The position numbers and the translations under genes were made by a program. The notes under the pieces were generated by a model that was not told the origin of the DNA, searched no databases, and saw only the letters and a list, made by a program, of their open reading frames with translations. A stretch of DNA of 64,000 nt from Candidatus Hydrogenedentota bacterium (GTDB lineage: Bacteria > Hydrogenedentota > Hydrogenedentia > Hydrogenedentales > SLHB01): positions 20,621-84,620 of the forward strand of contig CAIYET010000770.1 in the NCBI GenBank assembly GCA_903925285.1, written 5' to 3'. Positions 22,754 through 61,426 of this stretch are shown here, in pieces (position 1 is the first letter of the stretch; each line of letters opens with the position of its first letter).

Positions 22754-24916
22754 TTACGGACAACGCCTCTTGAAGCATCCTGCCGTGGACGCGGCCAACA
22801 TGAACGCTAGGAGTATCAGTGCGGAGACGCTGGCCGCTGGTAGCGGAACCAGGTTTACGACAAGAGTCACCGTATCCGACGTGACTGAGGCTTCTGTTTC
22901 ATCGGCCACCACGACCGCGTAGTCGCCTTGGTTCTCGATTGAGACTGAATCCATGACCAGCGCCGCCTCGGTAGCGTCCAAAATCAGGTTGCCGTCTTTG
23001 TACCATTGATACGACAACACCCCGACTCCGCCCGTTGCCTGGATGAAGAACGTAAAGGATTCTCCCGCGTTGGCCTGACCGCTTTTCGGTTGAAGTAAAA
23101 TCGTTAGAGGAGCCAGGTTTACGACAAGAGTCACCGTATCCGATGTGACTGAGGCGTGTGTTTCATCGGTCACCACGACCGCGTAGTCGCCTTGGTCTTC
23201 GATTGAGACTGAATCCATGACCAGCGCCGCTTCGGTAGCGTCCAAAAGCAGGCTGCCGTCTTTGTACCATTGATACGACAACACCCCGATTCCGCCCGTT
23301 GCCTGGGTAAAGAACGTAAAGGATTCTCCTGCGTTGGTCTGACCGCTTATTGGCTGAAGTGAAATCGCCAGAGGTTCGAAGAACTCGTAGGCGCCAATAT
23401 CGGGTCCAATACCCTGGGGTATCGGAATAGCGTCGAAATCGAATAGAATCCCCGCGTCGGTACCGGCATCTATGCAGGGGGAGGCCACTTGCAGATGGTA
23501 GTCGCGAAGCGCGGCGTTTGCAAACAAGGGATCCCCGCCGACGGCGTGGGTGTCGAATCCGGAGGCCGTGCTGTAGCCGGTCAAAGTCTGGTAGGTCGTC
23601 GAACCAACCTGAATGGCATCCGAACCGAGCGGCATGTGCAACCAGCAATTGTAGTCGATCACCTTGTTGGTTGCGCTTGCCATCTTCAATACCGGACTCC
23701 AAGTTGGTACGGAATTCGTCATGCCGATGTTGTTCTTCAACGTCGTGTTACACGTTCCATCATCAAGATAGAAGTTGTACTGCCTGCAATTCGTAACGGT
23801 GTTGTTGTAAATCTGGGAGTTCACCAGCGTTGTGCCCGACAGGAATAGTCCGTTCCACGTTAGATCATAAACCACGTTGCCGTACACCTTGGGGTTCATC
23901 AGGTTGGGCCAGCTACTATCCGTTATCAAAACGATGCCGTTAATATTCTCGGTGAATCCCGGCGTGGCGTATACGGTGTTGTACCGGACGATGTTGCCGG
24001 TCGGGCTTGAAGGGCCACCCTTTATGTCAATGCAATGATGATGGGCATTGTATGAAATGCACTTCTCGACGATCGCGTTTGAACAGTCGATCACATTGAT
24101 GTTGTTGCCGCCGGATTCATAGACGACGCATTGTGTGACCAAGTGGTTGTAGCCCGAGATCATGGAAAGTCCCATTTTGTCGATGGCATTATGGGACGGT
24201 GGATCAAGACGCCCAGCATGATGCAGCACAACATCGCGAATAATCCAGTTGTCATTTGTCGGAAAAACAAATAAGGTCTGATGATTGGCATTCTTCAACT
24301 CGAGACTCTCGATCGTGATGTAGTCCGAGTTCCCGTTCCACACTCCCTGGACACAATAATCACGGGCGGCCACCTGGATATCCCCTGGAAGCGAAATCGA
24401 ATATACATACAGAATATCCAATGTCCAATACCAACTGCCGCTCGCAGCTAATTCAACTACCGAGCCCATGTGGACACCACGCTCTCCGTCAAAAAAGACC
24501 AAATCGGGCGTTGGGGCTTTCTCTATCGGCGTCCACGGAAGGTTTGCCCGCCAAATGTGTGAGCCTGACGCCGTCTCGGTCCATCCTGTGACTGGGTCGG
24601 AACCGGTTATTATCGGGCGATTCCCATCGCCGTAGGCGCCAAACACGATCCGTGAAGAAGCGTTGCCACTCGTTGCGTTGACGAGAAGTGTCTCACGCCA
24701 AGTTCCTCCCCGCTTGAAGAGAATGGAGTCTCCCGGAAGAAAATGGGATATATCGACCTTGTGAATGGTTTTCCACGCATCGGCGTCCGACAATCCGTTC
24801 CAACTGTCATTACCCCCAACGGAATCGACGTAAAACAGCCTGGCGTCGGCTGTCAGACAAGGCACAATCCCTAACAGGAAGACAACCCACGCCCAAGATG
24901 ATTGATTCTTCTTCAT
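22754..24916 (-). CDS. Secreted right-handed beta-helix (pectate-lyase/NosD-like) protein with two Ig repeats and PEP-CTERM-like tail
   Basis: The signal peptide is MKKNQSSWAWVVFLLGIVPCLTADA. RLFYVDSVGGNDSWNGLS..AWKTIHK and serial N-rich beta-helix rungs follow. Two 88-aa Ig repeats are present. The tail is VPLPAASVSALILLAFMLAASTAGCFKRR. I chose the start at Met14 of the listed ORF. Confidence 0.7.
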   Translation of the reverse strand: MKKNQSSWAWVVFLLGIVPCLTADARLFYVDSVGGNDSWNGLSDADAWKTIHKVDISHFLPGDSILFKRGGTWRETLLVNATSGNASSRIVFGAYGDGNRPIITGSDPVTGWTETASGSHIWRANLPWTPIEKAPTPDLVFFDGERGVHMGSVVELAASGSWYWTLDILYVYSISLPGDIQVAARDYCVQGVWNGNSDYITIESLELKNANHQTLFVFPTNDNWIIRDVVLHHAGRLDPPSHNAIDKMGLSMISGYNHLVTQCVVYESGGNNINVIDCSNAIVEKCISYNAHHHCIDIKGGPSSPTGNIVRYNTVYATPGFTENINGIVLITDSSWPNLMNPKVYGNVVYDLTWNGLFLSGTTLVNSQIYNNTVTNCRQYNFYLDDGTCNTTLKNNIGMTNSVPTWSPVLKMASATNKVIDYNCWLHMPLGSDAIQVGSTTYQTLTGYSTASGFDTHAVGGDPLFANAALRDYHLQVASPCIDAGTDAGILFDFDAIPIPQGIGPDIGAYEFFEPLAISLQPISGQTNAGESFTFFTQATGGIGVLSYQWYKDGSLLLDATEAALVMDSVSIEDQGDYAVVVTDETHASVTSDTVTLVVNLAPLTILLQPKSGQANAGESFTFFIQATGGVGVLSYQWYKDGNLILDATEAALVMDSVSIENQGDYAVVVADETEASVTSDTVTLVVNLVPLPAASVSALILLAFMLAASTAGCFKRRCP
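22851..23378. repeat. Near-identical tandem duplication, 2 x 264 bp (88 codons), inside the beta-helix gene
   Basis: The unit starting aggtttacgacaagagtcaccgtatccga occurs at 22851 and again at 23115. The encoded repeats differ at ~10 of 88 residues. Confidence 0.85.
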
Positions 24917-25557
24917 CGGAATCCAACGCAACGTCAACTTAACGAGTTTTGTCAAAGTTAGCTGGATAAATTCTATCCGTATTCTCCCTTTCTTGTCAAT
25001 AAACGCTTACAGGAATGTCTTATCCGGTCAAGAAACGGCGGCTTCTGGTGTTGGGTCCACAATACGTGCTGTCATCCTTGGCCGTGTGTTGAATTTGGCC
25101 ATTTATGGCGTTGCGAAATTCGTTCAGAATTATCACTTCTATGCGCTTTTCCTCTTCAGATTCCGCGATGTGGTCGCCAAACACGCGATTTGGACGCAAG
25201 AACGTAACGAGCCGCGATTGAACGGTTGCTGGAACCGGCGGCTGGCAAAGGCCGGATAATGCACGGATCGGGAACCCAGCGGCTTAGCCCAAGGTCGGCT
25301 GTTCGTCAGGAATAAAATGCAACGATTCGTCGTTAGCCCCACAACCGTTTGGACCCGCTCATGGCTGATCCCGTTCCAGCTTCCAGGAACAACCTGAAAT
25401 GCGATGCAAGCACGTGCAATGATCCTTGCGTTCCGCTTCGTGCATAATCGCACCATGTCGTGCTATATTCGCTCAGCAACCGATCGCAGCAATCGCGGGA
25501 TGATGCCGTGTGTGCGTTTTGGGAGGCCCATCCCAAGAACGCCGTTCTGGAGGGGGC

Positions 25558-31174: not shown

Positions 31175-31597
31175 TCACTCTTCCGGCTGTACGTTCCCCT
31201 GCGGCGCGGAATCGGATTCGCCATGGTTGGGTAGCAAGTTCTTCAACCCTTCAAACGCCTTGAAGCCAAGAGTCGGTCCGTTGCCGCCCATCGGAGATCC
31301 CTCATAATGCTCCCGCTGTTGAGGCGTCTCATGCTCATTATCATGGCAATACAGACACAGCAATTCCCAGTTGCTGCCGTCGGGCGGATTGTTCATGTGA
31401 TCGTTGTCTCGATGATGAACCGTCAGTTCACGAAGCCGCTTGCCAGAGAATTCGCGGCCGCACCGCCCACAAACGTGTGGATAGATGTTGAGCGCCTGCT
31501 CGCGATAGCTCTTGTCTCGAAGAGCGTGATCGCGCTGAACTTCAGCAAGAATCCTAGCCTTCTCATCGGGACTTAACGGCTGCTTTTTGGTTGACAT
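31175..31597 (-). CDS. yajD: YajD-like HNH nuclease-fold protein
   Basis: YPHVCGRCGREFSGKRLRELTVHHRDNDHMNNPPDGSNWELLCLYCHDNEHE closely parallels E. coli YajD. I chose the start at Met17 of the listed ORF. Confidence 0.75.
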   Translation of the reverse strand: MSTKKQPLSPDEKARILAEVQRDHALRDKSYREQALNIYPHVCGRCGREFSGKRLRELTVHHRDNDHMNNPPDGSNWELLCLYCHDNEHETPQQREHYEGSPMGGNGPTLGFKAFEGLKNLLPNHGESDSAPQGNVQPEE

Positions 31598-31771
31598 TTT
31601 TGTGACCTCGACTCGTTTCTCTGCCGACGCAGACGTCTTGCGCACAGCGGATTGGCTGCCCAGCTTGCTGAATCTACAATACTCGCGGACCTTATCTCAA
31701 GGTGGGGAGGCTGGCGCAAGTGCAAATACCGTGCGCGCACGCACGACCCTTTGTCGTGCTGCGCGGCGCTG

Positions 31772-32519: not shown

Positions 32520-33614
32520 TTATGCGCCAGCCTTGGATTCGTCCATGAGTTTGGTAAAACGGTCGAAGAGGTAGCGGCTGTCGTGCGGACCGGGCGAGGC
32601 TTCGGGATGGTACTGCACGCTGAAAATGGGGTACTCGCGATGGTCCATGCCTTCGATGGACTGGTCGTTGAGATTGGTGTGCGTGATGCGGACCTTCTCG
32701 ATGTCGAGCGAGTTCGGGTCGACTGCGAACCCGTGGTTTTGTGCGCTGATCTCGACTTGGCCCGTGATATGGTTGAGCACGGGCTGGTTGGCGCCCCGGT
32801 GACCGAACTTGAGCTTATAGGTTGTGCCGCCATACGCGTGGCCGAGCAGTTGGTGGCCGAGGCAGATCCCAAAAATCGGCGTCTTGCCGAAGAGTCCCTG
32901 GATCGTCGGATACAGGTACGGTAGCGCGGCGGGGTCGCCGGGGCCGTTTGACAGAAATATGCCGTCGGGCTTCTGCGCGAGGACGTCTTCGAGGCCCGTC
33001 GTGGCGGGCATGACGATGACGCGGCAACCGTTGGCCTCCAACCGGCGCAGGATGTTGTACTTGATGCCGTAGTCCATTGCGACGACGCGGTACTTGCCCT
33101 CGGCGTTCGGATTCCACTCATACGGCGTGTCAACGCTGACCGCCTTGACGTAATCGCTTCCGGACATCGGCGGCGAAGCGAGCGCCTTCCCGACCAAGCT
33201 GTCGTGGTCGAGATCGACCGTGCTGATGACGGAACGTTGCGCGCCTTTCGTACGGAGGAGCTTTGTAATCTTGCGGGTATCGACGCCGTCGATTGCGACG
33301 ACGTTGTGCTGCTTGAGGTAATCCGGCAGCGACATTTTTGCACGCCAGTTGCTCGGTTTCATGCAGCATTCGCGCATGACGAACCCTTCGGCAAAAGGCT
33401 TGCGCGACTCGATGTCTTCGTCGTTGCAGCCGTAATTGCCGATCAGCGGATAGGTCATCGTGACGATCTGCCCGGCGTACGACGGGTCCGTCAGGATTTC
33501 CTGATAGCCCGTCATACTGGTGTTGAACACCAGTTCGCCGAAACTCACGCCCTCCGCGCCTACCGCGTTGCCTTCGAATACGCTCCCATCTTCCAGCGCC
33601 AATACTGCTTTCAA
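32520..33614 (-). CDS. carA: Carbamoyl-phosphate synthase small (glutaminase) subunit
   Basis: The N-terminus is [45 protein letters not shown]. The GATase block is [12 protein letters not shown], followed by VQYHPEA. Confidence 0.95.
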
Positions 33615-33653
33615 TTACAGTTCCTCTTTTTACAGGAGTCAGGATTCCGAATT

Positions 33654-33792
33654 AAGGATGAAGGATGAAGGATGAAAAAAGCTGTAGGCTTCAGGCTTCA
33701 GGCTTCAGGCTTCAGGCTTCAGGCTTCAGGCTTCAGCAATAATCCACAATCTACAATCCGCAATCGCCAATTCATCCTTCATCCTTCATCCT
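33654..33792. repeat. Composite heptamer-array palindrome: (AAGGATG)x3, (GGCTTCA)x7, (AATCNNC)x4, (TTCATCC)x3
   Basis: Read directly from the sequence. The outer arms (33654-33676 and 33771-33792) are reverse complements. The element lies between pyrC and carA. Confidence 0.9.
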
Positions 33793-33812
33793 TTTCTTCT
33801 TTTACTTGGCTC

Positions 33813-35084
33813 TCAAGGGTGTTGGTACACCACTTTTCCGTCGCAGATTGTCGTCATGACCTTGCCGCGAAGCCTTTCACCCGCGAATGGCGTGTTGCGG
33901 CTCAATGAGGCAAACACCGCCGGATCGACGGTCCATTCCGCTTTTGGAGCGAAGACTGCGATATCCGCCGGACCGCCTTCCGAAAGCGTTCCGACGGGCA
34001 AATTCAAGATGCGTGCCGGCGCGGCGGTCATCAACTCGATGGCCCGTTCGAGCGACACGACTTCGGTCTCGACCAAGCCCGTGACGGCGAGGCCGAGGGC
34101 CGTTTCAAGCCCGACGATGCCGAACGGCGCCAATTGGAACTCGACATCTTTATCGGACACGGTATGCGGAGCGTGATCCGTCGCGATACAGTCGATGGTC
34201 CCATCGGCGAGGGCTGCGCGGATGGCCGCGACGTCGCTTGCCTCGCGCAACGGCGGGTTCATCTTCGCGTCGGTGCTGAACGTCGTGACGGCTTCGTCCG
34301 TCAGCATCCAGTAATGCGGCGCCGTCTCGCACGTCACACGCGCGCCGTTGGCCTTGGCGCGGCGGATGATCTCGACGCCGCCTGCCGTTGTCACGTGCTG
34401 GATGTGAATCTTCGCGCCGGCCAGCGCCGCCAGACGGATGTTCCGGTCGATGCGAATCTCTTCCATCTCGCGCGGCATGCCTGACAGGCCAAGCCGGGTC
34501 GAGTTATAGCCTTCATTCATCGCGCCGGCATCCATCAGCGATGCGTCTTCGCAATGGGCGAGGTACGTCAAGCCGCACATGTCGGCATATTCGAGCACGC
34601 GCCGCATGACCCAACTGCTCGCGATATCCGAACCGTCGTCGGTGACCGCCACCACGCCGATGTCTTTGAGTTCGCCCATCTCCGTCATTTCCTGGCCCGC
34701 GCGCTCCTTCGTGGCACACGCGCTCGGCCAGACCTTGATGCAGGCCGTTTCGCGAGCGCGGCGGATGACGAATTCGACCATGCCGGCATTGTCGATGGGC
34801 GGCGCGGTATTGGGCATCGGCACGACGGACGTAAAACCGCCGCGCGCCGCCGCTTTGCTGCCCGATGCGATGGTCTCTTTGGACTCGTAACCAGGCTCGC
34901 GAAAATGGACGTGGATGTCTACAAAACCGGGACATACTACGTAACCGGCGGCATCGATGGTCTTCGTGCCTTTCAGTCCCTTGCCGATCCGCGCGATATG
35001 CCCATGCTCGACGAGTATGTCGGCGATTTCCGAGCGCCCGGACGCAGGGTCAATCATATAACCGTTGACGATCGCGAGGCTCAT
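33813..35084 (-). CDS. pyrC: Dihydroorotase
   Basis: DIHVHFREPGYESKETIASGSKAAARGGFTSVVPMPNT and CATDHAPH are present. The start overlaps the pyrB stop. Confidence 0.9.
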   Translation of the reverse strand: MSLAIVNGYMIDPASGRSEIADILVEHGHIARIGKGLKGTKTIDAAGYVVCPGFVDIHVHFREPGYESKETIASGSKAAARGGFTSVVPMPNTAPPIDNAGMVEFVIRRARETACIKVWPSACATKERAGQEMTEMGELKDIGVVAVTDDGSDIASSWVMRRVLEYADMCGLTYLAHCEDASLMDAGAMNEGYNSTRLGLSGMPREMEEIRIDRNIRLAALAGAKIHIQHVTTAGGVEIIRRAKANGARVTCETAPHYWMLTDEAVTTFSTDAKMNPPLREASDVAAIRAALADGTIDCIATDHAPHTVSDKDVEFQLAPFGIVGLETALGLAVTGLVETEVVSLERAIELMTAAPARILNLPVGTLSEGGPADIAVFAPKAEWTVDPAVFASLSRNTPFAGERLRGKVMTTICDGKVVYQHP

Positions 35085-36064
35085 GCGCTTTCCCCTCTCC
35101 CGCTATTGACGAGCAGGTGCATGATGGCCATGCGCACCGCCACGCCATTGGTGACCTGGCGCAGAATGACGCTTCGCGCGCCGTCGGCGACCCCCGCCGC
35201 GAGTTCGATGTCGCGGTTGATGGGACCGGGGTGCATGATGAGCGCATGCGGTGGCGCGAGCCGGAGCGACTCCTGGTCGACGCGGAACAACCGAATATAT
35301 TCGCGCACGCTGGGGAACAGGCAGTTCTGTTGCCGCTCGAACTGGATCCGCAACGCGTAAATCACGTCTGCGTCGCAGATCGCCTCGCGCAAATCCGTCG
35401 TGACCGTTACGCCCATCCGTTCGATGTGCGGCGGGATCAGCGTGCGCGGGCCGCAGAGCGTGACGTGGGCGCCGAGCTTCGTCAGGCACCAGATATTGCT
35501 GCGCGCGACGCGGCTGTTGGCGATATCGCCGATAATCGCCACGCGCAAACCATCGAGTTGCGCGTTCGGATCCTGCTGGACTTCACGGATATGCTCGCGC
35601 ATCGTGAACGCATCGAGCAGCGCCTGCGTCGGATGCTCATGCCGTCCGTCGCCCGCGTTGATGATATGCGACGGATGCCGTTGCGCGAGGATGTGCGCCG
35701 CGCCCGCGTAGCTGTGCCGAATGACCACGAGATCCGTCCGCATCGCCTCGATGTTTGCAAGCGTATCGTGCAACGTCTCGCCCTTGACTGTGCTCGAGGC
35801 CGACGCCGTAATCGAAAGCGTATCCGCGCTGAGGCGCTTCGCAGCGAGTTCGAACGAGGTCCGCGTGCGCGTGCTCGGTTCGTAGAACCAGTTTACGACC
35901 AGCCGCCCCTGCAGCAACGGTACCTTCTTGATACCGCTCTCGCGTGCGGATACGGCGACGAACTGTGGCGCAGTGTCCAAGATGAGCGTGATTTCGTCGC
36001 GAGAAAGCTCCTCGATGCCCAAGAGATCCTTGCGCGTCCACGCGCCCTTTGCTGGAGGCGTCAT
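35081..36064 (-). CDS. pyrB: Aspartate carbamoyltransferase catalytic subunit
   Basis: EPSTRTRTSFELAAKRLSA, HPTQALLD and HPGP motifs are present. The start overlaps the pyrR stop. Confidence 0.95.
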   Translation of the reverse strand: MTPPAKGAWTRKDLLGIEELSRDEITLILDTAPQFVAVSARESGIKKVPLLQGRLVVNWFYEPSTRTRTSFELAAKRLSADTLSITASASSTVKGETLHDTLANIEAMRTDLVVIRHSYAGAAHILAQRHPSHIINAGDGRHEHPTQALLDAFTMREHIREVQQDPNAQLDGLRVAIIGDIANSRVARSNIWCLTKLGAHVTLCGPRTLIPPHIERMGVTVTTDLREAICDADVIYALRIQFERQQNCLFPSVREYIRLFRVDQESLRLAPPHALIMHPGPINRDIELAAGVADGARSVILRQVTNGVAVRMAIMHLLVNSGRGESA

Positions 36065-36690
36065 GGCTCGCCTCCCTGTTCCGTCTTGGGCGTGCGGGTG
36101 TCAAGCAGAACGATATCCTCGCCGTCTATTTCCTTGAGCCGGACCGACACGTATTCGCCGTGCGCAGTGGGTACGCTCCAGCCGAGGTAATCCGGCTGAA
36201 TCGGCAGTTCGCGCCCGCCCCGGTCGATGAGACACGCCAGTTGGATGCGCGCCGGCCGTCCATAGTCCATGACCTCATCGAGCGCGGCGCGGATCGTGCG
36301 TCCCGCCGCCAGCACATCGTCGACCAGAATGACTGTTTTGCCGTCGATGGGAAAAGCGAAGTGCGTCGTGCCGCCGCCCACTTTGATCGTACCCATGCCC
36401 ACACGCAAGTCGTCGCGGTACAACGTCGTCGCCAGCGAGCCAACTGGCGGAGCGGGTAAAACCCCCGTCATCGCGCAAATTTGCGCCGCCAGCCGTTCCG
36501 CCAGCGGACGCCCACGGCTCAAAATCCCCAATAACGCCAGCGAGGACACGTCCAAATTCGCCGAGACGATCTCCTGCGCCATCCGGTGAATCGCCGCGTC
36601 CATCGCGGCCGCATCCATCACAACCGTCCCCGCGAAATCACTGGTTAGCGACGATTTCACGATGTCCGTTGCTCCCTGGTCTGCATTCAT
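36061..36690 (-). CDS. pyrR: Bifunctional pyrimidine operon regulator / uracil phosphoribosyltransferase
   Basis: The PRPP-binding loop is VILVDDVLAAGRTIRAAL. LLGILSRGRPLAERLA and DRGGRELPIQPDYLG are also present. Confidence 0.9.
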   Translation of the reverse strand: MNADQGATDIVKSSLTSDFAGTVVMDAAAMDAAIHRMAQEIVSANLDVSSLALLGILSRGRPLAERLAAQICAMTGVLPAPPVGSLATTLYRDDLRVGMGTIKVGGGTTHFAFPIDGKTVILVDDVLAAGRTIRAALDEVMDYGRPARIQLACLIDRGGRELPIQPDYLGWSVPTAHGEYVSVRLKEIDGEDIVLLDTRTPKTEQGGEP

Positions 36691-36710
36691 AAGCGTTCTA
36701 CCGTCCAGGC

Positions 36711-36737
36711 AAAAAAAATCCCAGCCGCACGGCTGAG
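36711..36737 (-). terminator. Intrinsic terminator hairpin plus U8 tract in the pyrR 5' leader (candidate PyrR attenuator)
   Basis: The minus strand reads CUCAGCC-GUGC-GGCUGGG-A-UUUUUUUU, ending 20 nt before the pyrR ATG. No minus-strand gene lies upstream that it could terminate. Confidence 0.6.
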
Positions 36738-37137
36738 CTGTCTACGTTTACCGCACCCGCTCCCGCGTGCGCGCTTTTTACACATGGTGGCGTCCACCTT
36801 GTCGTTCTCGGATTGCAGTTTCCTTGTTCGCAACAGTCATGCTATGCCGCGCAGTACGATAAAAGAAATCATAGTCACGACTACGACATTGCGGCCATGC
36901 CGTATTAGGTGGATTCTATCAAGCAGGACGGGGCAAGTCAACACGCCTCCGCCGTTTCTGCAACATTTGTCTTGACAGCCGTCTTCACACGACTCTATAG
37001 TAAAGCGAGCAGTTACGGATATATTTTGCTTCACGGAACAGCTCTGCCTCTGCGTTGGAGAGCGTGCAACGCAGAGTCGCGGAGGATGCCGGGATTCGGA
37101 GAGACAGACAAGCAACTATGAACAGGAGGTCTTCAAC

Positions 37138-40983
<3,846 letters not shown>

Positions 40984-43611: not shown

Positions 43612-45831
43612 TCAGCGGGGGACGATGCGGGCGGCAATGTCCTTTTCGATAGGCGGCATTGCGATGCCGAGGCCGGTTTGGGTGGCGGCGGATGGTACGC
43701 GCTGGTCGATGCGGCCTTGCCAGGTGTCCCACCATTCGATTGTGTAGCGGCCGGGGTTCAGGCCGTGAATCGTCGTTTCGGCGTTGGCGATGGTTGGGAT
43801 GGGGTTTCCATCGCGGACGTTTTTCCAGTTGTGATCGGCGTTGTGCAGCCAGAGGACCGCAGTGTTGCCGTTCGTCATGCCGTAACATTGCAGGTTCACG
43901 TAACGACTGCTCGTGTAATTCGTCACGCGGTAGTTGCCGACGCTGAGCCAATCGCCGTCCGTCACTTCGAGTTGAACGGCGTGTTCGCCGACGGGGATGT
44001 CGATCGCGTAATCCTTGTTGAAGATCGCCTGGTACAGGCCGTACTCATTGCGGAAATCGGTCTTCTCGAATTCCGGTTTGACGTTCGAGTCCGTCGGCGG
44101 GCATGCGGACAACGCGATGGTGCGCGCGAGTTGTCCATCGAGCAGGAATTGCAGACAAGCGCTGTGCGAGACGGAATCGACGTGCACGATGAACTGGCAC
44201 GGCCGTTCGCAATGGAGATGAAATACGGGCCTGGTTCGGATGTCGGACTTGACAGGCGCATAGATGAAACTGGGAAACGTCGTCGGATCGGGGACGCTGT
44301 CCGCCTTGAGCGTGAACTCTTCGGTTGGACACCGCTTCCACCCGCAACTGGGCGCGATAATCAGGTCGCGGAACGTCTCGTCACCGGCGGGGACGCGCGG
44401 TGCGTCGATGCGCAGGCGCCTCCAGCGTCCATGGGTCCACGGGGTCTTGTCCGCGAACGTACGCAACGGCGTAAACGTGGCGTACAAGTTCCCGGGATGC
44501 ACGTAGCCATCCCAATACCAAATCATCGCGCCGCCGGCGTTGCCCGAACAGGCCGAGGCCCAAAGTCCGTTGTGCAGGTTGACGCCTTTGAATTGGGGGT
44601 CGTAGGGATTGTCGCTGTTGCGCCAGTCGATGCCGAACTCGGCCATGAGGTGCGGTTTCGCGTAGGCGTCGTGGTTGCGTGCGTCGAAATGGATGACCGG
44701 CGAGCTATCGGCGACGTCGCCTTGGCCGTAATGGTGCGTCATCGTGAAATCGACATTGGGGATCTTCCACACGTCCTTGTCGCCGTACGTCGTCGATACG
44801 AGGTGGCCAAACGCGTCCGTTCCCTTGAGGTATGCGGCCATTTCGGCGACCCACGCGGCAGGCTCGATCGCCTCGTTCCAGAACTCCCACGCGCAGAGGT
44901 TCGCGCGCCAGCCGTAGCGTGCGGCGAGGTAGCGCAGGCGGCGCTGATACAGTTTGCGCGCCTGCTCGTTCGCCCAGAAATCCGCAGGTTGCGCGCAGGG
45001 TCCGCCGTTCGCAACGTTGTACGGATTTGCGTTCCATTGGCCTTCGTTGAAATAGCCGCCGGTCGTGAACTCGCCGTAGGTGCCCAGGCACAGCATGACT
45101 TGGACGGCGTTCTGCGCGGCCAAGTCGAAGATGCGGTCCAGCCTCGACGCCGTCATCAAATTGTAGCGGCCCGCGCCAAAATACCCGTCTCCGGTCCATT
45201 CGATGCCGCAGTTCCAACTGATCATCCAGAGGCGGATCCAGTTGCCGCCCGCGCGGCTTAGCGCAGGCAGCCAGTCCTCGTAATCGAATGTGCCGCGTTT
45301 GCCGGCCCAGCACATGTTTTCGCCCACGGCAAAAAACGGTTGCCCGTTCTCGAATGCGAAATACCGCGCTGGATTCCCGGCAGCCTTGACGAAACCGGGA
45401 TCGTCCGAGCGCACCGCGCGAAACGTTGCCGGACCCGTCTGGACGTATCCCGTCCGATCTTTCGCGAAGACCTGGTAATGCCAGCGGCCCAGTAGGCGCG
45501 GCGCGAATCGGATTTTCCACACCGGTTCGCCCGATGCCGCGTCGACTTCATGATCGCCTTCGAGTTTGTGCGTGAAATCCTGGTCGAGATACGCATTCAC
45601 GCGGATGGGCGGTCCTTCGGGCGGCGTGAACATGCCCCATACGTCGATGTCGCCGGGATCGAACGGATTGTCGTATGTCGCCGACAAACGAAGCGTGAGT
45701 TCGCACAACCCGTACCGGGGCACGGTCGTGTTATTGATGCCCGCTACGCTTAGCGCCAGCGGCGATTGGCTTGGCAACACATCGCCCGCTGTTCCGGCGA
45801 GACACAGAATAAGGATCGTCGCGCCATACAT
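43612..45831 (-). CDS. Secreted glycoside hydrolase, DUF5060-like N-terminal beta-sandwich plus GH5-like (beta/alpha)8 domain
   Basis: A signal peptide is present. LCELTLRLSATYDNPFDPGDIDV..WKIRFAP..GRWHY is the N-terminal domain. GGNWIRLWM and NLCAWEFWNE (acid/base NE motif) mark the TIM barrel. Confidence 0.55.
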   Translation of the reverse strand: MYGATILILCLAGTAGDVLPSQSPLALSVAGINNTTVPRYGLCELTLRLSATYDNPFDPGDIDVWGMFTPPEGPPIRVNAYLDQDFTHKLEGDHEVDAASGEPVWKIRFAPRLLGRWHYQVFAKDRTGYVQTGPATFRAVRSDDPGFVKAAGNPARYFAFENGQPFFAVGENMCWAGKRGTFDYEDWLPALSRAGGNWIRLWMISWNCGIEWTGDGYFGAGRYNLMTASRLDRIFDLAAQNAVQVMLCLGTYGEFTTGGYFNEGQWNANPYNVANGGPCAQPADFWANEQARKLYQRRLRYLAARYGWRANLCAWEFWNEAIEPAAWVAEMAAYLKGTDAFGHLVSTTYGDKDVWKIPNVDFTMTHHYGQGDVADSSPVIHFDARNHDAYAKPHLMAEFGIDWRNSDNPYDPQFKGVNLHNGLWASACSGNAGGAMIWYWDGYVHPGNLYATFTPLRTFADKTPWTHGRWRRLRIDAPRVPAGDETFRDLIIAPSCGWKRCPTEEFTLKADSVPDPTTFPSFIYAPVKSDIRTRPVFHLHCERPCQFIVHVDSVSHSACLQFLLDGQLARTIALSACPPTDSNVKPEFEKTDFRNEYGLYQAIFNKDYAIDIPVGEHAVQLEVTDGDWLSVGNYRVTNYTSSRYVNLQCYGMTNGNTAVLWLHNADHNWKNVRDGNPIPTIANAETTIHGLNPGRYTIEWWDTWQGRIDQRVPSAATQTGLGIAMPPIEKDIAARIVPR

Positions 45832-45872
45832 GTTGAACCCTCCAGGCTATGGGTAAACGCGTGCCGAGAACT

Positions 45873-45942
45873 GAGATTTGAGATTTGAGATTTGAGATTT
45901 GAGATTTGAGATTTTGGATTTTGGATTTTGGATTTTGGATTG
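45873..45942. repeat. Direct tandem heptamer array, (GAGATTT)x6 (TGGATTT)x3 TGGATTG
   Basis: Read directly from the sequence. It abuts the stop codon of the SSS transporter gene (45943) and lies 42 nt upstream of the GH5-like start. Confidence 0.95.
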
Positions 45943-47562
45943 TCACGTGTCTTCTTTTCGCGTCCAGACCGTCAGGTTCGTCAGGTCGCGTTTTTCGCGT
46001 TGAAACGCGGAGGCGATGGCGTAGGTAACAGCGAACATGACGATATTGCCGACAATGCCGGCGTAGTAGGTATGGACGGGCCGGGCGAGCCACGCTGCGA
46101 AATTGTGCGACACGGCGAGATGCGACATGATTGCGTCGACGGTGATGAGTTTCAATTCGATGGCGGCAATGTATGCGCTGAAGAGGAGCGTGCTTGCGAT
46201 GCCGACCGCGACGGTGCGTCCGTTGCCGCGTTTGGTCAGAAAACCGAGCGCGTAAAGTCCCAGGAGTCCGCCCGCCAGGATCGAGCCGATTTTGGCGCCG
46301 GTGTCTTGCAGCGTGAGTTTGGTCATTTGGAGGAATAGCGTGGCGCCGCCGATCATGAGCAGGCAACTGGCCGCGGAGACGAGGCGCGCTGCGAAGACGT
46401 AATGGCGCTCGTCGCGGTTCTTGGCCATGTGCCGTCGATAGATGTCGGTTATGCTCACGGCTGCAATCGAGTTGATGCTCGATGAGGACGCCGACATCGC
46501 GGCGGACAGCACGCCGGCGATGACCAACCCTGCGAGGCCCGTCGGGATCGCGCGCACGCAGAAGTATGGCAGAATCGATTCGGCTTTCGCGCCGTTCGCG
46601 CCGGTCAGGATCGCCGCGGCCATCGGATCGGGATGGAGCTTGAAGTAGACGTACATGCATGTGCCGAGAAACATGAAGAAGATCCATGTCGGCACGCTGC
46701 AGAAACAGCATATCCAGATCGAGCGCGTTGCTTCCTTTGGATTCTTCGCGGCGACGTATTTCTGAATCACGTTTTGATTGCTGCTGTATTCGGTGAGCCA
46801 ATTGGTGAGTCCGCACAGGAGCATCATGACGATGGCCTTGTCTTGCAGCGAGAACCACGGCGCCGGTTCGAGCACGTGGGTTGTCATATTGAGATCGCCG
46901 AGCATGAATTTGCCGTCCGCCATGGCGGTCGAGATTACCGTGGCGATGCCACCGTCGATGCCGTGGATGACGGTTACGAAGCACAGGCCCGCGCCGAACC
47001 ATAGTATGAACGCCTGGAAGAATTGCGCCCACACGATGGCCTGGATCCCGCCCGCGACGGTGTAAATCGCGATCACGACACCGCCCATGACAATGCAGGC
47101 GTATGGCGTCGAGCCGGTAATTTGCTGGAACACGAGCGAGACGAGATACAGGATTGTGCTGATACGCATGACTTGGCCCAATATGAACGCGCAGGCCGCG
47201 TACATGCGAACGCCGGGTCCGAAACGTCCCTCGAGATACTCGAACGCGGACGTACACCGGCTGCGGCGGTAGAATGGCAGAAAGATTCGGGATGCCATGA
47301 AAATGCCGATGGGCAGCATGAAACATGGCAGCAGCCGCAGGTACGCGGTCCTGTACGCGTCGGCGGGATACGCAATCACGGTGATCGAACTGATCGATGT
47401 GGCGAACATCGCCAGGCCCAGCAACCATGCCGGAAATTGCCGGTTGCCGACGAAGAAACTCTCGGTCGATCGATTCCTCCGTGCGAATATCGGTCCGATC
47501 GACGCGATGGCGCAGAAATAGACAATCAGAATGGCCCAGTCGAGCTTTCCAAAATTTGACAT
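45943..47562 (-). CDS. Sodium:solute symporter (SSS/SLC5 family)
   Basis: LDWAILIVYFCAIASIGPIFARRNRSTESFFVGNRQFPAWLLGLAMFATSISSITVIAYPADAY plus ~13 TM helices. I chose the start at Met28 of the listed ORF. Confidence 0.8.
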   Translation of the reverse strand: MSNFGKLDWAILIVYFCAIASIGPIFARRNRSTESFFVGNRQFPAWLLGLAMFATSISSITVIAYPADAYRTAYLRLLPCFMLPIGIFMASRIFLPFYRRSRCTSAFEYLEGRFGPGVRMYAACAFILGQVMRISTILYLVSLVFQQITGSTPYACIVMGGVVIAIYTVAGGIQAIVWAQFFQAFILWFGAGLCFVTVIHGIDGGIATVISTAMADGKFMLGDLNMTTHVLEPAPWFSLQDKAIVMMLLCGLTNWLTEYSSNQNVIQKYVAAKNPKEATRSIWICCFCSVPTWIFFMFLGTCMYVYFKLHPDPMAAAILTGANGAKAESILPYFCVRAIPTGLAGLVIAGVLSAAMSASSSSINSIAAVSITDIYRRHMAKNRDERHYVFAARLVSAASCLLMIGGATLFLQMTKLTLQDTGAKIGSILAGGLLGLYALGFLTKRGNGRTVAVGIASTLLFSAYIAAIELKLITVDAIMSHLAVSHNFAAWLARPVHTYYAGIVGNIVMFAVTYAIASAFQREKRDLTNLTVWTRKEDT

Positions 47563-47712
47563 AACGTATACGATTCCCCAAACAACACTCAGTCGCGACT
47601 CGGTAAACGGATGGAGTATAGCAGCAAGATCGCGAGCAATCACGCGAATTCAAGATGCCCGCCGGTTGACCCGCGCGGCTTCGGTATGCTGCAATTCACG
47701 CGGAGGTATGAC

Positions 47713-48536: not shown

Positions 48537-48746
48537 CCTAAAAAAGGCAGTCAGAATTCAGGATTCAGAATTCAGAATGTTGAATAACAGTGGACTTACA
48601 CACGAGACTCGGCAACATTTGCGCTCACCCAACACCGGCGCGGAAGCGTTGCGCGCGGCGCGGTGAATACTTTCGCGCGTCGAAAGATACCGTAACCTGT
48701 TGCCATTCTGAATTCTGACTCCTGAATTCTGACTGCCTTTTTTAGG
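48537..48746. mobile_element. MITE-like element: 210 bp, 43-bp terminal inverted repeats (42/43 match), flanked by ATAAA on both sides
   Basis: The left TIR is CCTAAAAAAGGCAGTCAGAATTCAGGATTCAGAATTCAGAATG. The right TIR is its reverse complement with one mismatch. ATAAA sits at 48532-48536 and again at 48747-48751. The element lies between the convergent tatD and nuclease genes. Confidence 0.6.
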
Positions 48747-49668: not shown

Positions 49669-49747
49669 AAGGCTTCAGACTTCAGGCTTCAGGCTTCAGG
49701 CAATGCAGTCATGAAGCCTGAAGCCTGAAGCCTGGAGCCTGAAGCCT
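49669..49747. repeat. Heptamer-array hairpin: (GGCTTCA)-type x4, 12-nt loop, (GAAGCCT)-type x5
   Basis: Read directly from the sequence. The right arm overlaps the stop codon of the DUF1460-like gene. Confidence 0.9.
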
Positions 49748-50528
49748 AGAACGGTTTCCCGATGGCGTATGCCGTGAAGCCGAGGTAGCGGTTGGACTTC
49801 TCGAAGGGGGCGGCGAATTCGGTCGCAACGACCTTGCCTTCGGTCGAACTCGCCTGGTACAGCATGGGCCGACCATCCGCTTCGCGGACGAAAAGCGCGC
49901 AATGCAGCACGAACAGCCAGTCCGTCTTGCCGATGAGCAGGATGAGCGCGGGGTTGGGCAGGCGCTTGGCGGCCTTGCGCGCTTCGGCGCCCGGCACGTA
50001 AGTTATGGTCAGTACCTGGTCGTGGATATTGGCGCCGAGTTCCGGCGCCTTGCACGTTTCGAAGAGTTTCTTTCGTCCGATTGTGCGGGTGGCATCGACG
50101 GTGGCCGTCTTAAGTTTGGAGGACACGTCGCGGCAAAACCGGTTGTTGACCACCCAGTCGGCTTCCATAAAGTGGTTGCGATGGTCGAAAGCGATGACGC
50201 CGTCTTTGTAGCGAATTTTCTGCAGCGAGTCATACGCCTCCTGGTAGGAATGCGACGCAGCCAGCGCGATGCTCTGCTCGATGAACGTGACGCAGTCGAC
50301 TCGCTTCAGGTCCATCAACGGGTCTTTGTCGTAAGGAGCGTCCGGTCCTTCGCCCAAAGGACCATCGGCGTACGGCGTGCCGAGGCTGTCGCGCGCGACT
50401 ACTATCAGGCGCTTGCCGAAATCGGATTCGCGGGCCTGAAGGTCGTGAAGATACGCATCCATTGCGCCGGGGTCCAAATCGAACACCGGCGCGGCCATAG
50501 TCAATAACAAGGCGGCGATGAACATCAT
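49746..50528 (-). CDS. DUF1460-like secreted protein (amidase/transglutaminase-like fold)
   Basis: GTPYADGPLGEG...DLKRVDCVTFIEQSIALAAS (conserved Cys context) is present. There is an N-terminal hydrophobic signal. I chose the start at Met16. Confidence 0.5.
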   Translation of the reverse strand: MMFIAALLLTMAAPVFDLDPGAMDAYLHDLQARESDFGKRLIVVARDSLGTPYADGPLGEGPDAPYDKDPLMDLKRVDCVTFIEQSIALAASHSYQEAYDSLQKIRYKDGVIAFDHRNHFMEADWVVNNRFCRDVSSKLKTATVDATRTIGRKKLFETCKAPELGANIHDQVLTITYVPGAEARKAAKRLPNPALILLIGKTDWLFVLHCALFVREADGRPMLYQASSTEGKVVATEFAAPFEKSNRYLGFTAYAIGKPF

Positions 50529-50544
50529 AAACGGCCCATAGGCA

Positions 50545-50593
50545 GGCTTCAGACTCGAGACCTCAAGTCTCAAGCCTAACGCCTGAGGTTAGA
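50545..50593. repeat. Degenerate heptamer array (GGCTTCA GACTCGA GACCTCA AGTCTCA AGCCTAA CGCCTGA GGTTAGA) containing a 12-bp stem hairpin
   Basis: AGGCTTCAGACT at 50544-50555 pairs with AGTCTCAAGCCT at 50566-50577 (11/12). The array lies between the DUF1559 stop and the DUF1460 start. Confidence 0.7.
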
Positions 50594-57890: not shown

Positions 57891-58034
57891 ATGAAGAAGG
57901 CTAAACCAACGTCGGGAGTCAAACTTCGCGCGGAGTACACACGGTCCGATTTTAGCGGCCCCATGGTGCGAGGCAAATATGCGAAACGCTTACGCGAGTC
58001 ATCGAATATCGTCGTCTTGAAACCCGAAGGATGA
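57891..58034 (+). CDS. 47-aa protein resembling the N-terminal part of a small antitoxin-like family (..LRAEYxxSDFSGxxVRGKYAKR..VVL.P..), C-terminally truncated
   Basis: The sequence is MKKAKPTSGVKLRAEYTRSDFSGPMVRGKYAKRLRESSNIVVLKPEG. The stop codon lies inside the (GAAGGAT)n repeat. The family assignment is from memory only. Confidence 0.35.
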   Translation: MKKAKPTSGVKLRAEYTRSDFSGPMVRGKYAKRLRESSNIVVLKPEG

Positions 58035-58077
58035 AGGATGAAGGATGAACCTATCAGTGCGCTTCGTTTTCATCCTT
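58026..58077. repeat. (GAAGGAT)x3 heptamer array with downstream complementary TTCATCCTT
   Basis: Read directly from the sequence. The array contains the TGA of the 47-aa ORF (58032-58034) and the ATG of the next ORF (58038). Confidence 0.85.
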
Positions 58078-60299
58078 TCTCCGACCGCCGAACTCACATT
58101 TGCCTGGTCCTGGCGGCGCTGACGCTGGCGGTTTACGCGCAGGTTTACAGCCACGGTTATCTCTTGGTCGACGACCACCTGTACGTGGGGGAGAACGCTC
58201 GAGTCCAGGCGGGGTTGAGTTGGGCCAATACTCGGTGGGCATTTACGACGACCGCGGCTGCGAACTGGCATCCGGTGACGTGGCTTTCGCACATGCTGGA
58301 TTGCCAATTGTTCGGGGTGCACCTGGGCGCGCACCATCTGGTGAACGTACTGTTCCACCTGATGAACGTGTTGCTGCTTTTCTGGCTGTTGGAACGCATG
58401 ACGGGCGCGATGTGGCCGAGCGCATTCGTTGCGGCTGTTTTCGCGTTGCACCCGTTGCACGTGGAATCGGTGGCGTGGATTGCCGAGCGCAAAGACGTGC
58501 TGAGCACGTTCTTTTGGTTGCTGACGATGGCGGCTTACCTGGGGTATCTCAAGAAACCGTCTTTGGGACGGTACCTTGCGATCCTGCCATTGTTCGCGCT
58601 TGGCCTGATGGCCAAACCGATGCTGGTCACGCTGCCATGCGTGCTGTTGCTGCTGGATTACTGGCCGCTGGGCCGGTTCACGCCGCCGCCCGCGCCGCAG
58701 AAACACGGCAAGGGCAAACCTGTCAAGCCAGTCAAACCGGCTTTTCCGTGGAAGGTCCTGATCGAGAAAATCCCGCTGTTCGGGCTTGTAGTACTTTCGA
58801 GCCTGATGACGTATCGGGCGCAGCAGGGCCTCGGCGCGGTGCAAACGTTGGACATGCTGTCGCTGACCCAACGGTTGGCCAACGCGGTCGTTTCATACGC
58901 GCGCTACGCGTTTCACACGGTATGGCCGGTACACCTGTCGACGTATTACCCGCTGGCCAAAGACGGGTTGCCCTGGTGGCAAATCGCGACCGCGCTGGTT
59001 TTCCTATCGGGCATGACGGCGTTGGTTATCTGGCAGATTCGCAGACGTCCGTTCCTCGGCGTGGGCTGGTTTTGGTATCTGGGCACGCTGGCGCCAGTCA
59101 TCGGGATCGTGCAGGTGGGCAGCCAGGCCATGGCCGACCGTTACATGTACGTGCCGCTGATCGGCCTTGGAATCATGGCGGCGTGGGGGGGAGACGCGAT
59201 CATTCCTCGGCTCCCCTATCGAACGCACGCACTCGCGGTTATTTGCGGTCTGTCGATCGTCGCGATGACAGGTTTGAGCGCGCTCCAGGTGTGGTATTGG
59301 GGCGACAACGCCGTTCTGTACGCGCACGAAGTCCAGCTTTGTCCCGACAGCTATTTTGCACATTACCAGTTGGGGATCGCGCTCAAGAAGGCAAATCGTA
59401 TAGACGAAGCCGAACTCGAGTTCCTCAAGACGGTCGAAATCATGCCCAACCATGTCGACGCCCAGTTGTCCCTCGGGCTGATCGCATACGGCAAGAAACA
59501 GTACGACGAGGCGATCAAGCATTACACCGTGGCGCTCGATCACGCCGTGGGCCATCGGAACCGAGCCGAGACGGAGATCAATTTTGGGACCGTCCTCATG
59601 GAAACGGGCCGGTTCGACGAGGCCGCGAAACATTACCAGATCGGGCTGCAACTGAAACCCGATATGGCGGCGGGGCATTACAACCTGGGCAACGCGCTGG
59701 TACGGCTCAACCGGCCCGACGAGGCGGCCCGGCATTATCGCGAGGTGTTGCGCCTCGAACCGGGGAACCAACTGGCGCAAACCCAGCTTCGCGAACTGCT
59801 CCAGTCGGGCGTCGCGACCACGAGTTCCGAGCCCAAACCCAAACTCGAGACCGCGAACGACTACTACGAGTATGGCAACAAGCTCGCCGAGCAGAACCGG
59901 TTTGCGGAGGCGGCCGAGCAGTACCAGGCGGCGCTCAAGCTGAAACCGAACGAATTGGCGGCACGGATCAACCTCGGCAATGCGATGGCCGCGATGGGCA
60001 AACCGCAGGATGCGTTGACGCAGTTCCAGGAGGCTCTGAAATCGCAACCCAATTGCGGCGACGCTCTCATCAACGCCGGCAACGCGTTGATCGAGTTGAA
60101 CCAGTTCTCGAAAGCGCGCGACTATTTTTCCAAGGCCACGCAAGCCAACCCGCGCAACGCCGAAGGGTGGTGCGGATTGGCGTGTGTGCTCGAGCGACTC
60201 AACCAGAACACCGATGCGGCCAAAGCCTATAGCAAGGCATTCGAGTTGGACCCCAACAACCGGCGCGCCAAAGAAGGCTTGCAAGAGTTGCACAAGTAA
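58038..60299 (+). CDS. TMTC/PMT-like membrane glycosyltransferase (DUF1736-type N-terminal multi-TM domain) fused to C-terminal TPR repeats
   Basis: VYAQVYSHGYLLVDDHLYVGENARV, about 10 TM helices, and at least 8 TPR units (YYNLGNALVRLNRPDEAARHYREVLRLEPGN and similar). The start is uncertain because the ATG lies within the repeat. Confidence 0.7.
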   Translation: MKDEPISALRFHPFSDRRTHICLVLAALTLAVYAQVYSHGYLLVDDHLYVGENARVQAGLSWANTRWAFTTTAAANWHPVTWLSHMLDCQLFGVHLGAHHLVNVLFHLMNVLLLFWLLERMTGAMWPSAFVAAVFALHPLHVESVAWIAERKDVLSTFFWLLTMAAYLGYLKKPSLGRYLAILPLFALGLMAKPMLVTLPCVLLLLDYWPLGRFTPPPAPQKHGKGKPVKPVKPAFPWKVLIEKIPLFGLVVLSSLMTYRAQQGLGAVQTLDMLSLTQRLANAVVSYARYAFHTVWPVHLSTYYPLAKDGLPWWQIATALVFLSGMTALVIWQIRRRPFLGVGWFWYLGTLAPVIGIVQVGSQAMADRYMYVPLIGLGIMAAWGGDAIIPRLPYRTHALAVICGLSIVAMTGLSALQVWYWGDNAVLYAHEVQLCPDSYFAHYQLGIALKKANRIDEAELEFLKTVEIMPNHVDAQLSLGLIAYGKKQYDEAIKHYTVALDHAVGHRNRAETEINFGTVLMETGRFDEAAKHYQIGLQLKPDMAAGHYNLGNALVRLNRPDEAARHYREVLRLEPGNQLAQTQLRELLQSGVATTSSEPKPKLETANDYYEYGNKLAEQNRFAEAAEQYQAALKLKPNELAARINLGNAMAAMGKPQDALTQFQEALKSQPNCGDALINAGNALIELNQFSKARDYFSKATQANPRNAEGWCGLACVLERLNQNTDAAKAYSKAFELDPNNRRAKEGLQELHK

Positions 60300-61021: not shown

Positions 61022-61426
61022 TTACTCATTGAGCAAGACATGAAACCCTGCTTGCTCGAAATGATGGTCGGACGCCAGGGCTTCCGTGATGTCTCTGGCC
61101 CGCATCACGGTGAAGGATATGCAATCCGTAAGAGACCATTCCTTGTCGGGGCGGGCGGCATAAAGGGTAAGTCCTTCATCAAAGAGATCGGAAGATGTCC
61201 GAATCAGAATCGTGGATGGGTCGGAACGGAGACGCTCCACAAACCTGACAAAAAGGGAACGCAAATCCCCCCGCGACATGAGTGCCGCGAGTTCCACCAA
61301 CACGTAATCCGTTGTCACGATCTCCGCACGAAGGGATTCAAAGAGCGCAACGGCGGCCGCATGATGCTTGTCGCGCTTGCTGAACAAGGCTTGGTAAAAC
61401 GACGTGTCCGCGAAAACCCGATTCAT
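61022..61426 (-). CDS. vapC: PIN-domain toxin (VapC-like), apparently intact
   Basis: MNRVFADTSFYQALF..., VLVELAA, LTDCISF and ASDHHFEQAGF supply the four conserved acidic positions. The start overlaps the antitoxin stop (ATGA). Confidence 0.75.
   Translation of the reverse strand: MNRVFADTSFYQALFSKRDKHHAAAVALFESLRAEIVTTDYVLVELAALMSRGDLRSLFVRFVERLRSDPSTILIRTSSDLFDEGLTLYAARPDKEWSLTDCISFTVMRARDITEALASDHHFEQAGFHVLLNE

Follow-up and report, generated by a model that had tools for sequence, protein, structure and literature searches.

Heptamer repeats in bacterial genomes

Tandem arrays of 7-nt units (heptamers) have been known since 1990 as short tandemly repeated repetitive (STRR) sequences, with the canonical words CCCCAAT, TTGGTCA and CAACAGT. 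Here we describe a set of heptamer arrays in a contig of Candidatus Hydrogenedentota bacterium (CAIYET010000770.1, assembly GCA_903925285.1). The window, by which we mean the whole stretch of 64 000 nt that was analysed, carries six array loci, at 33.6, 45.9, 48.5, 49.7, 50.5 and 58.0 kb, the first of which is a composite of four arrays in the spacer between pyrC and carA of a pyr operon. The source is a metagenome-assembled genome (MAG), so assembly could affect exact copy numbers. The arrays belong to a known heptamer repeat class, now seen in a candidate phylum, and open no new kind of system; what they add is a clean birth event in the pyr operon and a control that reveals period specificity with no word specificity. 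They are probably heptanucleotide microsatellites, or long simple sequence repeats (LSSRs), that slippage generated in unconstrained spacers and that inverted duplication turned palindromic, and their effects are at most those of a generic RNA hairpin. The initial annotation of this DNA did not recognize a described repeat class in them; there is one, and such heptamer arrays are described in PMC4692102, PMC4679880, PMC2670836 and PMC2700814.

As summarized in PMC4679880 and PMC4692102, Mrazek, Guo and Shah (2007) found heptameric simple sequence repeats to be over-represented in the intergenic regions of many bacteria, with heptamers the dominant long simple repeat in many of them, and raised the hypothesis that 7 nt is the DNA segment held by the polymerase, so that slippage of this length is favoured. 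The window arrays resemble the LSSRs as these summaries portray them: arbitrary tandem 7-nt units, over-represented relative to other lengths, mostly intergenic and phylogenetically patchy, with differences between close lineages, and put down in one proposal to slippage that prefers steps of 7 nt. The phyla named in these papers do not include Hydrogenedentota, and unlike the LSSRs described there the window is dense in arrays (six loci in 30 kb), with half of its loci palindromic.

In Nostoc and Anabaena, 7-bp STRR hairpins lie between hupS and hupL, where a role in transcript stability or translational coupling has been proposed (PMC2670836). The window shares with these the 7-bp tandem units and the hairpins in spacers inside operons. 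Its arrays are not STRRs in the strict sense, given the Hydrogenedentota host and the words GGCTTCA, GGATGAA, GAGATTT, GGATTTT and TCAGAAT in place of the canonical ones. Xanthomonas has about 185 GGGAATC arrays per genome, 70–75 as convergent (inverted) pairs able to form stem-loops (Rehm et al. 2015, PMC4692102). These arrays and the GGGGA(C/T)T arrays of Nostoc are intergenic, comprise 2–26 units and differ in length between related species; they are G-rich and form G-quadruplexes, one word family dominates per genome, and approximately 83% of repeat positions are conserved between two Xanthomonas species (PMC4692102). The window arrays are likewise intergenic heptamers, but they lack G-tracts, use several words and occupy positions that are not conserved in relatives.

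In Geobacter metallireducens, runs of five tandem MTYCTGA heptamers form eight pairs, with the partners on opposite strands, and one of these pairs lies between proB and proA (Aklujkar et al. 2009, PMC2700814); these 'class 3 global regulator binding sites' were interpreted as binding sites for IHF/HU (PMC2700814). At the 48.5-kb locus the arrays are also paired, and the words ATTCTGA and CTCCTGA fit MTYCTGA exactly, while the 33.6-kb composite, like the proB–proA pair, sits inside a biosynthetic operon. In contrast to the single Geobacter consensus, MTYCTGA words are only one of about six word families in the window. The TAACTGA repeats of marine Beggiatoaceae, cyanobacteria and Bacteroidetes are intergenic and often lie just 5′ of start codons (MacGregor 2015, PMC4679880), a position that recalls the array at 58026. 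They consist of a single word, nearly always as direct repeats and usually in 2–6 copies, and proposals about them include both horizontal transfer and translational regulation (PMC4679880). Finally, the window arrays are short, intergenic, hairpin-forming and often between convergent genes or in operons, as are repetitive extragenic palindromes (REP/REPIN) and miniature transposable elements with inverted repeats (MITEs). Those elements have a conserved sequence and a cognate transposase, either a REP-associated tyrosine transposase (RAYT) or that of an insertion sequence, whereas here the period alone is common to the loci and no transposase was found in the 20 genes scanned.

Period-7 arrays in the window and their recent gain

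A lag scan of the window for arrays of at least three copies yielded nine with period 7, at five loci (a sixth locus holds a decayed array), against none with period 5 or periods 8–12; there was one with period 4 and three with period 6, the latter in frame within one surface-protein gene. The initial annotation had called for a genome-wide tandem-repeat scan; within the window, such a scan gives an excess of period 7. The chance expectation of 14 consecutive lag-7 matches in 64 kb is about 2 × 10⁻⁴. The units run head to tail in 3.3–7.3 copies, mostly with 100% matches, and all six loci fall in the approximately 10% of the window that is non-coding according to a gene map built from GC-by-codon-position calling and Pfam. 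Both the lag scan and Tandem Repeats Finder (TRF) agree with the earlier remark that the first 32 kb is free of arrays: no spacer there has an array of three or more copies or a period-7 signal, and every array lies beyond 33.6 kb. This clustering is marginal (0 of 12 first-half against 5 of 13 second-half spacers, hypergeometric p ~0.02). As such the feature is real and holds up statistically, and period 7 exceeds neighbouring unit lengths in the window, in other genomes and in viral contigs alike.

The composite at 33.6 kb lies in the 199 nt of spacer that separate the pyrC stop (33813) from the carA start (33614, TTG). It lies in a minus-strand operon in which a PyrR-like (Pribosyltran) gene, pyrB, pyrC and carA follow one another co-directionally; pyrC and carA were named by homology and not by Pfam. 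TRF and a separate lag scan both find four arrays. These are (AAGGATG)x3.3 at 33654–33676 (TRF, 100% matches), which on the sense (minus) strand forms the 3′ arm UUCAUCC; (GGCTTCA)x7.3 at 33686–33736 (TRF score 102, 100% matches), sense (UGAAGCC)n; a diverged (AATCNNC)x3.6–4 at 33741–33771 (TRF, 83% matches), sense GNNGAUU x4; and (TTCATCC)x3.3 at 33771–33793 (TRF, 100% matches), sense (GGAUGAA)n. The two outer arrays make a 23-nt inverted repeat, 100% complementary, with its arms 94 nt apart. The initial annotation had the four words, the reverse complementarity of the first and last and the pyr operon setting right. Folded as RNA on the transcribed strand, the composite reaches −62 kcal/mol (z −4.0) with a 23-bp outer stem, and the GGCTTCA and AATCNNC arrays remain largely unpaired; folded as DNA, it has a z of −6.3.

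Some smaller observations concern the same spacer. In the pyr mRNA, each of the three frames gets an AUG from (GGAUGAA)n at 33771–33793 and a UGA from (UGAAGCC)n further downstream, at 33686–33736, so short frames opened in the former get closed in the latter. Between the composite and the carA ribosome-binding site, at 33633–33646, are two tandem units, CAGGAGT CAGGATT (sense AATCCTG ACTCCTG), of the same word class as the 48.5-kb array; they may be the remnant of another array. A PyrR attenuator or other known RNA family was dropped as a reading: no Rfam match at the gathering threshold was obtained in the window, the surroundings of the arrays gave no relevant one at E ≤1, the PyrR binding-site model (RF00515) gave none at E ≤1 in 33400–37300, and the sole sub-threshold matches were to miRNA hairpins at 49.7 kb.

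Comparison with relatives captures the gain of this composite. By its pyrC homologues the window belongs to Candidatus Hydrogenedentota. In the closest relative (L145, GCA_026387875.1), whose pyrC is 94% identical in protein and 92.3% in DNA, the pyrC–carA spacer is 26 nt long, and alignment to it shows that the window has a clean insertion of approximately 172 nt. Both flanks of the insertion align to one and the same 13-nt stretch of L145 (positions 1156–1168, GTAGAAGAAGGAA), so the insertion is bracketed by an imperfect 13-nt direct duplication. Its left copy, GTAAAAGAAGAAA (33794..33806, minus strand), runs straight into the GGATGAA array, and its right copy, GTAAAAAGAGGAA (33626..33638, minus strand), keeps the carA Shine-Dalgarno sequence. 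A single indel separates the array word GAAGGAT from GAAGGAAT, the ancestral ribosome-binding sequence, which argues for local seeding. The locus is therefore a clean example of birth, with a 26-nt spacer in a relative, some 172 nt gained, a recognizable local seed and a flanking duplication, all in an essential biosynthetic operon.

Other relatives have pyrC–carA spacers of 16 nt (L002 and L124, pyrC protein identity 86–87%) or of 105 and 127 nt (L122 and L123, 88–89%), the last two unrelated and non-repetitive. Across the window and its close Hydrogenedentota relatives the spacer length is hypervariable (16, 16, 26, 105, 127 and 199 nt) with unrelated inserts, and this junction evidently turns over fast even without heptamers.

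More widely, relatives with 72–94% identical flanking proteins have no arrays in the orthologous spacers, nor within 6–10 kb on either side. Around the AmiA-like gene that separates the 49.7-kb and 50.5-kb loci, relatives at 72–78% identity have upstream spacers of 4 to approximately 30 nt and no period-7 array within 6 kb on either side; only a relative at 56% identity (L139) has arrays there, two in number, of AAATCTC and TTCCGCG. Their absence from relatives marks the arrays as a recent gain specific to this lineage, a burst rather than a set of conserved regulatory elements.

Two further loci of the window are palindromic. The hairpin element at 48537..48746, between convergent TatD and SNase-like genes, consists of CCTAAAAAAGGCAG, (TCAGAAT)x4 at 48551–48578, a 124-nt core, the inverted (ATTCTGA)x4 at 48705–48732, which reads ATTCTGA ATTCTGA CTCCTGA ATTCTGA, and CTGCCTTTTTTAGG. 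It folds as RNA at −124 kcal/mol (z −9.6) into a 42-bp stem that takes in CCTAAAAAAGGCAG paired to CTGCCTTTTTTAGG and encloses the 124-nt interior. A variant unit, TCAGGAT, holds the second position in both arms, and this mirroring argues that the arms were copied from one another and not grown independently. At 49.7 kb, (AGGCTTC)x4.6 (49670–49701) and the inverted (TGAAGCC)x5.1 (49712–49747) are separated by a loop of 10–14 nt and fold at −80.5 kcal/mol (z −10.3) with a stem of approximately 40 bp. From the AmiA-like stop codon, where it starts, this element runs to just 5′ of a promoter-like site for the SNase-like gene (TTGACA-17-TAAACT), in a region conserved in the relative L127 (86% over 42 nt). 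The hairpin pairing noticed in the initial annotation is therefore real at three loci, with RNA folds at z −4 to −10.

The remaining three loci are simpler. At 45872–45941, (TGAGATT)x6 is followed by (TTGGATT)x4.5 (TRF), beginning 2 nt past the stop of an SSF (sodium:solute) symporter gene and upstream of a DUF5060 gene; its RNA fold (−6.1 kcal/mol, z +1.15) is unstructured. At 58026–58049, (GAAGGAT)x3.4 overlaps the predicted start, at the 5′ end, of a TPR/PMT_2 gene and has a weak partial inverted partner at 58069–58082, again with no significant structure. In the spacer from the DUF1559 stop to the AmiA-like start, 50545..50593 holds approximately seven units of the consensus AGRCYTC that TRF missed and lag-7 counting detected. 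Its 25 of 42 lag-7 matches exceed the 24 reached by the best of 300 shuffles of the intergenic sequence as a whole (other lags, 3–12); we read it as a decayed array. All five loci beyond the pyr operon that the initial annotation had listed were recovered in this way, by TRF or by lag counting.

We scanned 185 579 species genomes for (GGCTTCA)x3, which gave at least 115 loci in some 20 phyla, finished genomes of cultured Pseudomonas-group bacteria included; the finished genome of cultured Ectopseudomonas mendocina (CP176620.1) is one that carries the same kind of array. A period census was taken over 797 kb around the matches listed, from more than 100 genomes, and the counts from other genomes given below refer to these. 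It found 217 period-7 arrays, 96 of them with non-query words, compared with 1 to 31 arrays at every remaining period between 4 and 10 and with none at 11 or 12. In viral contigs, (GGCTTCA)x3 occurred at 8 loci and its composition-matched permutations at 6, 5 and 2, while (GAGATTT)x3 occurred at 33 and its permutation at 25; period-8 extensions of the same words were found at 1 and 3 loci, about ten-fold rarer. Since permutations are about as common and period-8 extensions are rare, the word is arbitrary and the period is not. These controls lend support to the earlier argument that a constant period with changing words points to a period-specific generating process.

Two ideas about the words were dropped along the way. 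The presence of GGCTTCA in some 20 phyla and the recurrence of AAATCTC arrays in L011, L063 and L139 had suggested a restricted cross-phylum vocabulary; this is no evidence for a sequence-specific mechanism, as viral contigs hold composition-matched permutations about as often. The other idea, a common CTGA/TGA (stop-codon) core, had been suggested by TCAGGCT, TCAGAAT, TCAGGAT, the Geobacter MTYCTGA and the Beggiatoa TAACTGA; among 40 arrays with query-unrelated words in the matches listed, TGA was present in 10 (null 8.8) and CTGA in 1 (null 1.9).

The words of neighbouring arrays are related. Within the window they are nearer to each other than shuffled words (mean distance 2.53 versus 3.03, p ~0.009), and 31% of neighbouring arrays in the matches listed from other genomes differ from GGCTTCA by one mismatch (null 1.8%), as do 26% of arrays more than 300 nt off. 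This fits mutation of units and their re-amplification, with some spread within genomes. Perfect arrays also adjoin diverged or decayed ones, at 83% matches (33741–33771) and approximately 60% lag-7 matches (50545–50593).

Multi-word heptamer composites occur in unrelated phyla too. A Vicinamibacteraceae MAG (L109:3075–3385) has a palindrome of approximately 300 bp that reads (GGTCCAC)(AGGCTAC)(AGGCTTC) ... (GAAGCCT)(GGCCTGT); a Pirellulales MAG (L020:7271–7390) has AAGATTG, GCCTGAA and CCTGAGA in order, resembling the window composites; and in a Planctomycetota MAG (L063:5216–5330) TTGAGAT is followed by TTGGAYC, a word order that also resembles them.

Probable slippage and competing explanations

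We consider it probable that these arrays arose by slippage, and the following course of events would account for them. A short local sequence would serve as the seed, which at pyrC–carA would be the native ribosome-binding region GAAGGAAT. Slipped-strand mispairing during replication would amplify the seed in 7-nt steps, and the resulting 7-nt loops would be expected to escape mismatch repair. Arrays would persist solely in spacers, because a 7-nt unit shifts the reading frame within genes. Units would then mutate and the mutants be re-amplified, leaving adjacent arrays of related words together with older, decayed arrays. Some arrays would be copied in inverted orientation, by fold-back, template switching or conversion between arms, to give palindromes with very stable transcript hairpins. 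Such hairpins may act as generic 3′-end or stability structures and not as conserved operon-specific regulators; if they have an RNA-level role, such as 3′-end formation or stabilization at 48.5 and 49.7 kb, it would be a generic one of recent acquisition.

Several points weigh against this origin. Sequences of the same species were sought, and none was found, that would display copy-number polymorphism, the hallmark of slippage. Exact words recur across loci of the window (GGCTTCA at two or three, GGATGAA at two), a recurrence that independent seeding accounts for only where common motifs act as seeds; loci may to some extent have been copied from one another. The 13-nt flanking duplication could equally be the target-site duplication of a mobile insertion. 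Half of the loci are palindromic (3 of 6) compared with 9 of 172 arrays with inverted partners in the GGCTTCA loci of other genomes, among the matches listed, which may reflect selection or a hairpin-favouring process specific to the lineage. Why the unit is 7 nt, and not 5 or 8, is without explanation here and in the literature. Even so, the four rival explanations that we weighed (selected RNA structures, mobile elements, protein-binding sites and artefact) are all less supported than slippage.

The rival that survives best, though we judge it rather improbable, is that the hairpins are selected RNA structures, be they terminators, 3′-end protective stem-loops or RNase III-type sites, that set the relative mRNA levels of neighbouring genes. 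This would be akin to the REP and STRR proposals, with heptamer arrays as an easy route to long perfect stems, and the hupS–hupL hairpins have indeed been proposed to stabilize transcripts (PMC2670836). The high palindromic fraction is in keeping with it, as are the three loci (33.6, 48.5 and 49.7 kb) whose folds are far more stable than those of shuffles. The 48.5-kb element, set between convergent genes, is bounded by A6 and T6 tracts, like a bidirectional terminator, and the 49.7-kb hairpin extends exactly from a stop codon to the promoter-like site in the region conserved in L127, where a terminator belongs. However, the 33.6-kb and 49.7-kb hairpins have no sense-strand U-tract after the stem, and a terminator scan calls no array hairpin. 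The hallmarks of Rho-independent termination are lacking overall: only the 48.5-kb element has A6/T6 flanks, but these enclose a 124-nt interior. None of the relatives examined has the hairpins in its orthologous spacers, no significant structure forms in the 45.9-kb and 58-kb arrays, and most of the 33.6-kb composite is unpaired. Mismatches in the stems show no G–U wobble bias on the transcribed strand and are too few to be informative. The initial annotation had offered terminators or stabilizers as one option; the position makes this plausible at two loci, but the missing sense-strand U-tract and the want of conservation in relatives tell against it.

A more doubtful alternative is an active lineage-specific process, the hairpins having been co-opted as 3′-end or operon-insulating RNA structures. 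The process could be a mobile element of the foldback type, or some activity of repair or replication by which 7-nt units are both amplified and copied inverted, and it could have switched on after the split from relatives at 92% DNA identity. If so, the insertion would uncouple pyrC from carA, which are almost translationally coupled in some relatives (16–26-nt spacers), others having 105–127 nt.

We think it unlikely that the palindromic composites are non-autonomous foldback or MITE-type elements, with heptamers as terminal inverted repeats and a transposase encoded elsewhere in the genome. The clean boundaries and imperfect flanking duplication of the pyrC–carA insertion are what such an element would leave, identical words do occur at separate loci, and the 48.5-kb element has a 42-bp inverted terminus that reaches 14 nt past the arrays and a possible 5-bp ATAAA flanking repeat. 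Yet the 13-nt duplications are purine-rich, of low complexity and imperfect, the insertion does not end in the 33.6-kb inverted repeat, and each locus has its own internal content, arm lengths and words. Outside the heptamers, no segment of any locus turns up again in the window or among the other loci compared, and the junction of the first and second arrays is absent from Joint Genome Institute (JGI) metagenome contigs; on these two grounds a MITE with a conserved core was dropped. Pfam detected no transposase or RAYT among 20 window gene products (of 43 called open reading frames (ORFs), about 20 were left out). The suggestion of a mobile repeat family, also made from the sequence at the outset, consequently finds no support in a shared non-repeat core, a transposase among the 20 genes scanned or a metagenomic junction.

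Still less likely, on our analysis, is another option of the initial annotation, that the arrays would be multimeric sites for a DNA- or RNA-binding protein, either of the IHF/HU type as in Geobacter or S1, Csp or CsrA as for TAACTGA. Regular spacing, a GGAT core in several words (GGATGAA, GGATTCA, GGATTTT and GGATTGT), the proximity of arrays to start or stop codons and the published binding-site proposals (PMC2700814, PMC4679880) would suit such a role. However, the words are too unlike between loci for one sequence-specific binder, the GGAT-bearing strand has no consistent orientation relative to transcription, and the TGA/CTGA core is not enriched among unrelated words in the matches listed from other genomes. 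Close relatives with the same genes lack the arrays, and no candidate binding protein was identified. An assembly or library artefact is very improbable: although the DNA comes from a MAG, misassembly classically strikes palindromes and tandem repeats and copy numbers cannot be verified, the flanks are collinear with several independent relatives, no array reaches the length of a typical read pair, the words are unlike adapters, and arrays of this kind exist in finished cultured genomes (E. mendocina, and Xanthomonas, Nostoc and Geobacter according to the literature).

Gene calls and other features of the window

Heptamer arrays break assemblies, create spurious ORFs and mislead start-codon calls, and the window has examples of the latter two. 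A spurious ORF of 640 aa (45731–47653, minus strand), with a codon-position GC of 0.73/0.52/0.46, runs through the 45.9-kb array in mechanical ORF calls. The longest-ORF start of the AmiA-like gene, a TTG at 50573, falls inside the decayed array; to judge from relatives, the real start may be an ATG near 50525–50528. In the 58026–58049 array, each unit sets a Shine-Dalgarno-like GAAGGA 6 nt 5′ of an ATG, which puts ATGs in all three frames. The second of them, at 58038, is where the TPR/PMT_2 gene is predicted to start, and slippage by one unit would keep a start in frame.

Hexamer arrays and one period-4 run are the sole non-heptamer arrays of three or more copies in the window. The hexamers, GGCGAA/GGCGAG in up to 9.7 copies, lie at 37270–37294, 38968–38998, 39513–39548 and 40786–40843 and encode Gly-Glu repeat linkers in a 1281-aa Ig/PKD/CARDB surface protein (37138–40983, plus strand). 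An Ig-like/beta-helix gene (22754–24955, minus strand) contains a 264-bp tandem duplication at 22841–23374, in two copies that are 91% identical. A stand-alone HNH endonuclease gene is present at 31175–31645 (minus strand), and a PIN-domain gene at 61022–61471 (minus strand) has a small overlapping upstream ORF (61423–61662), in a layout that resembles a toxin–antitoxin pair.

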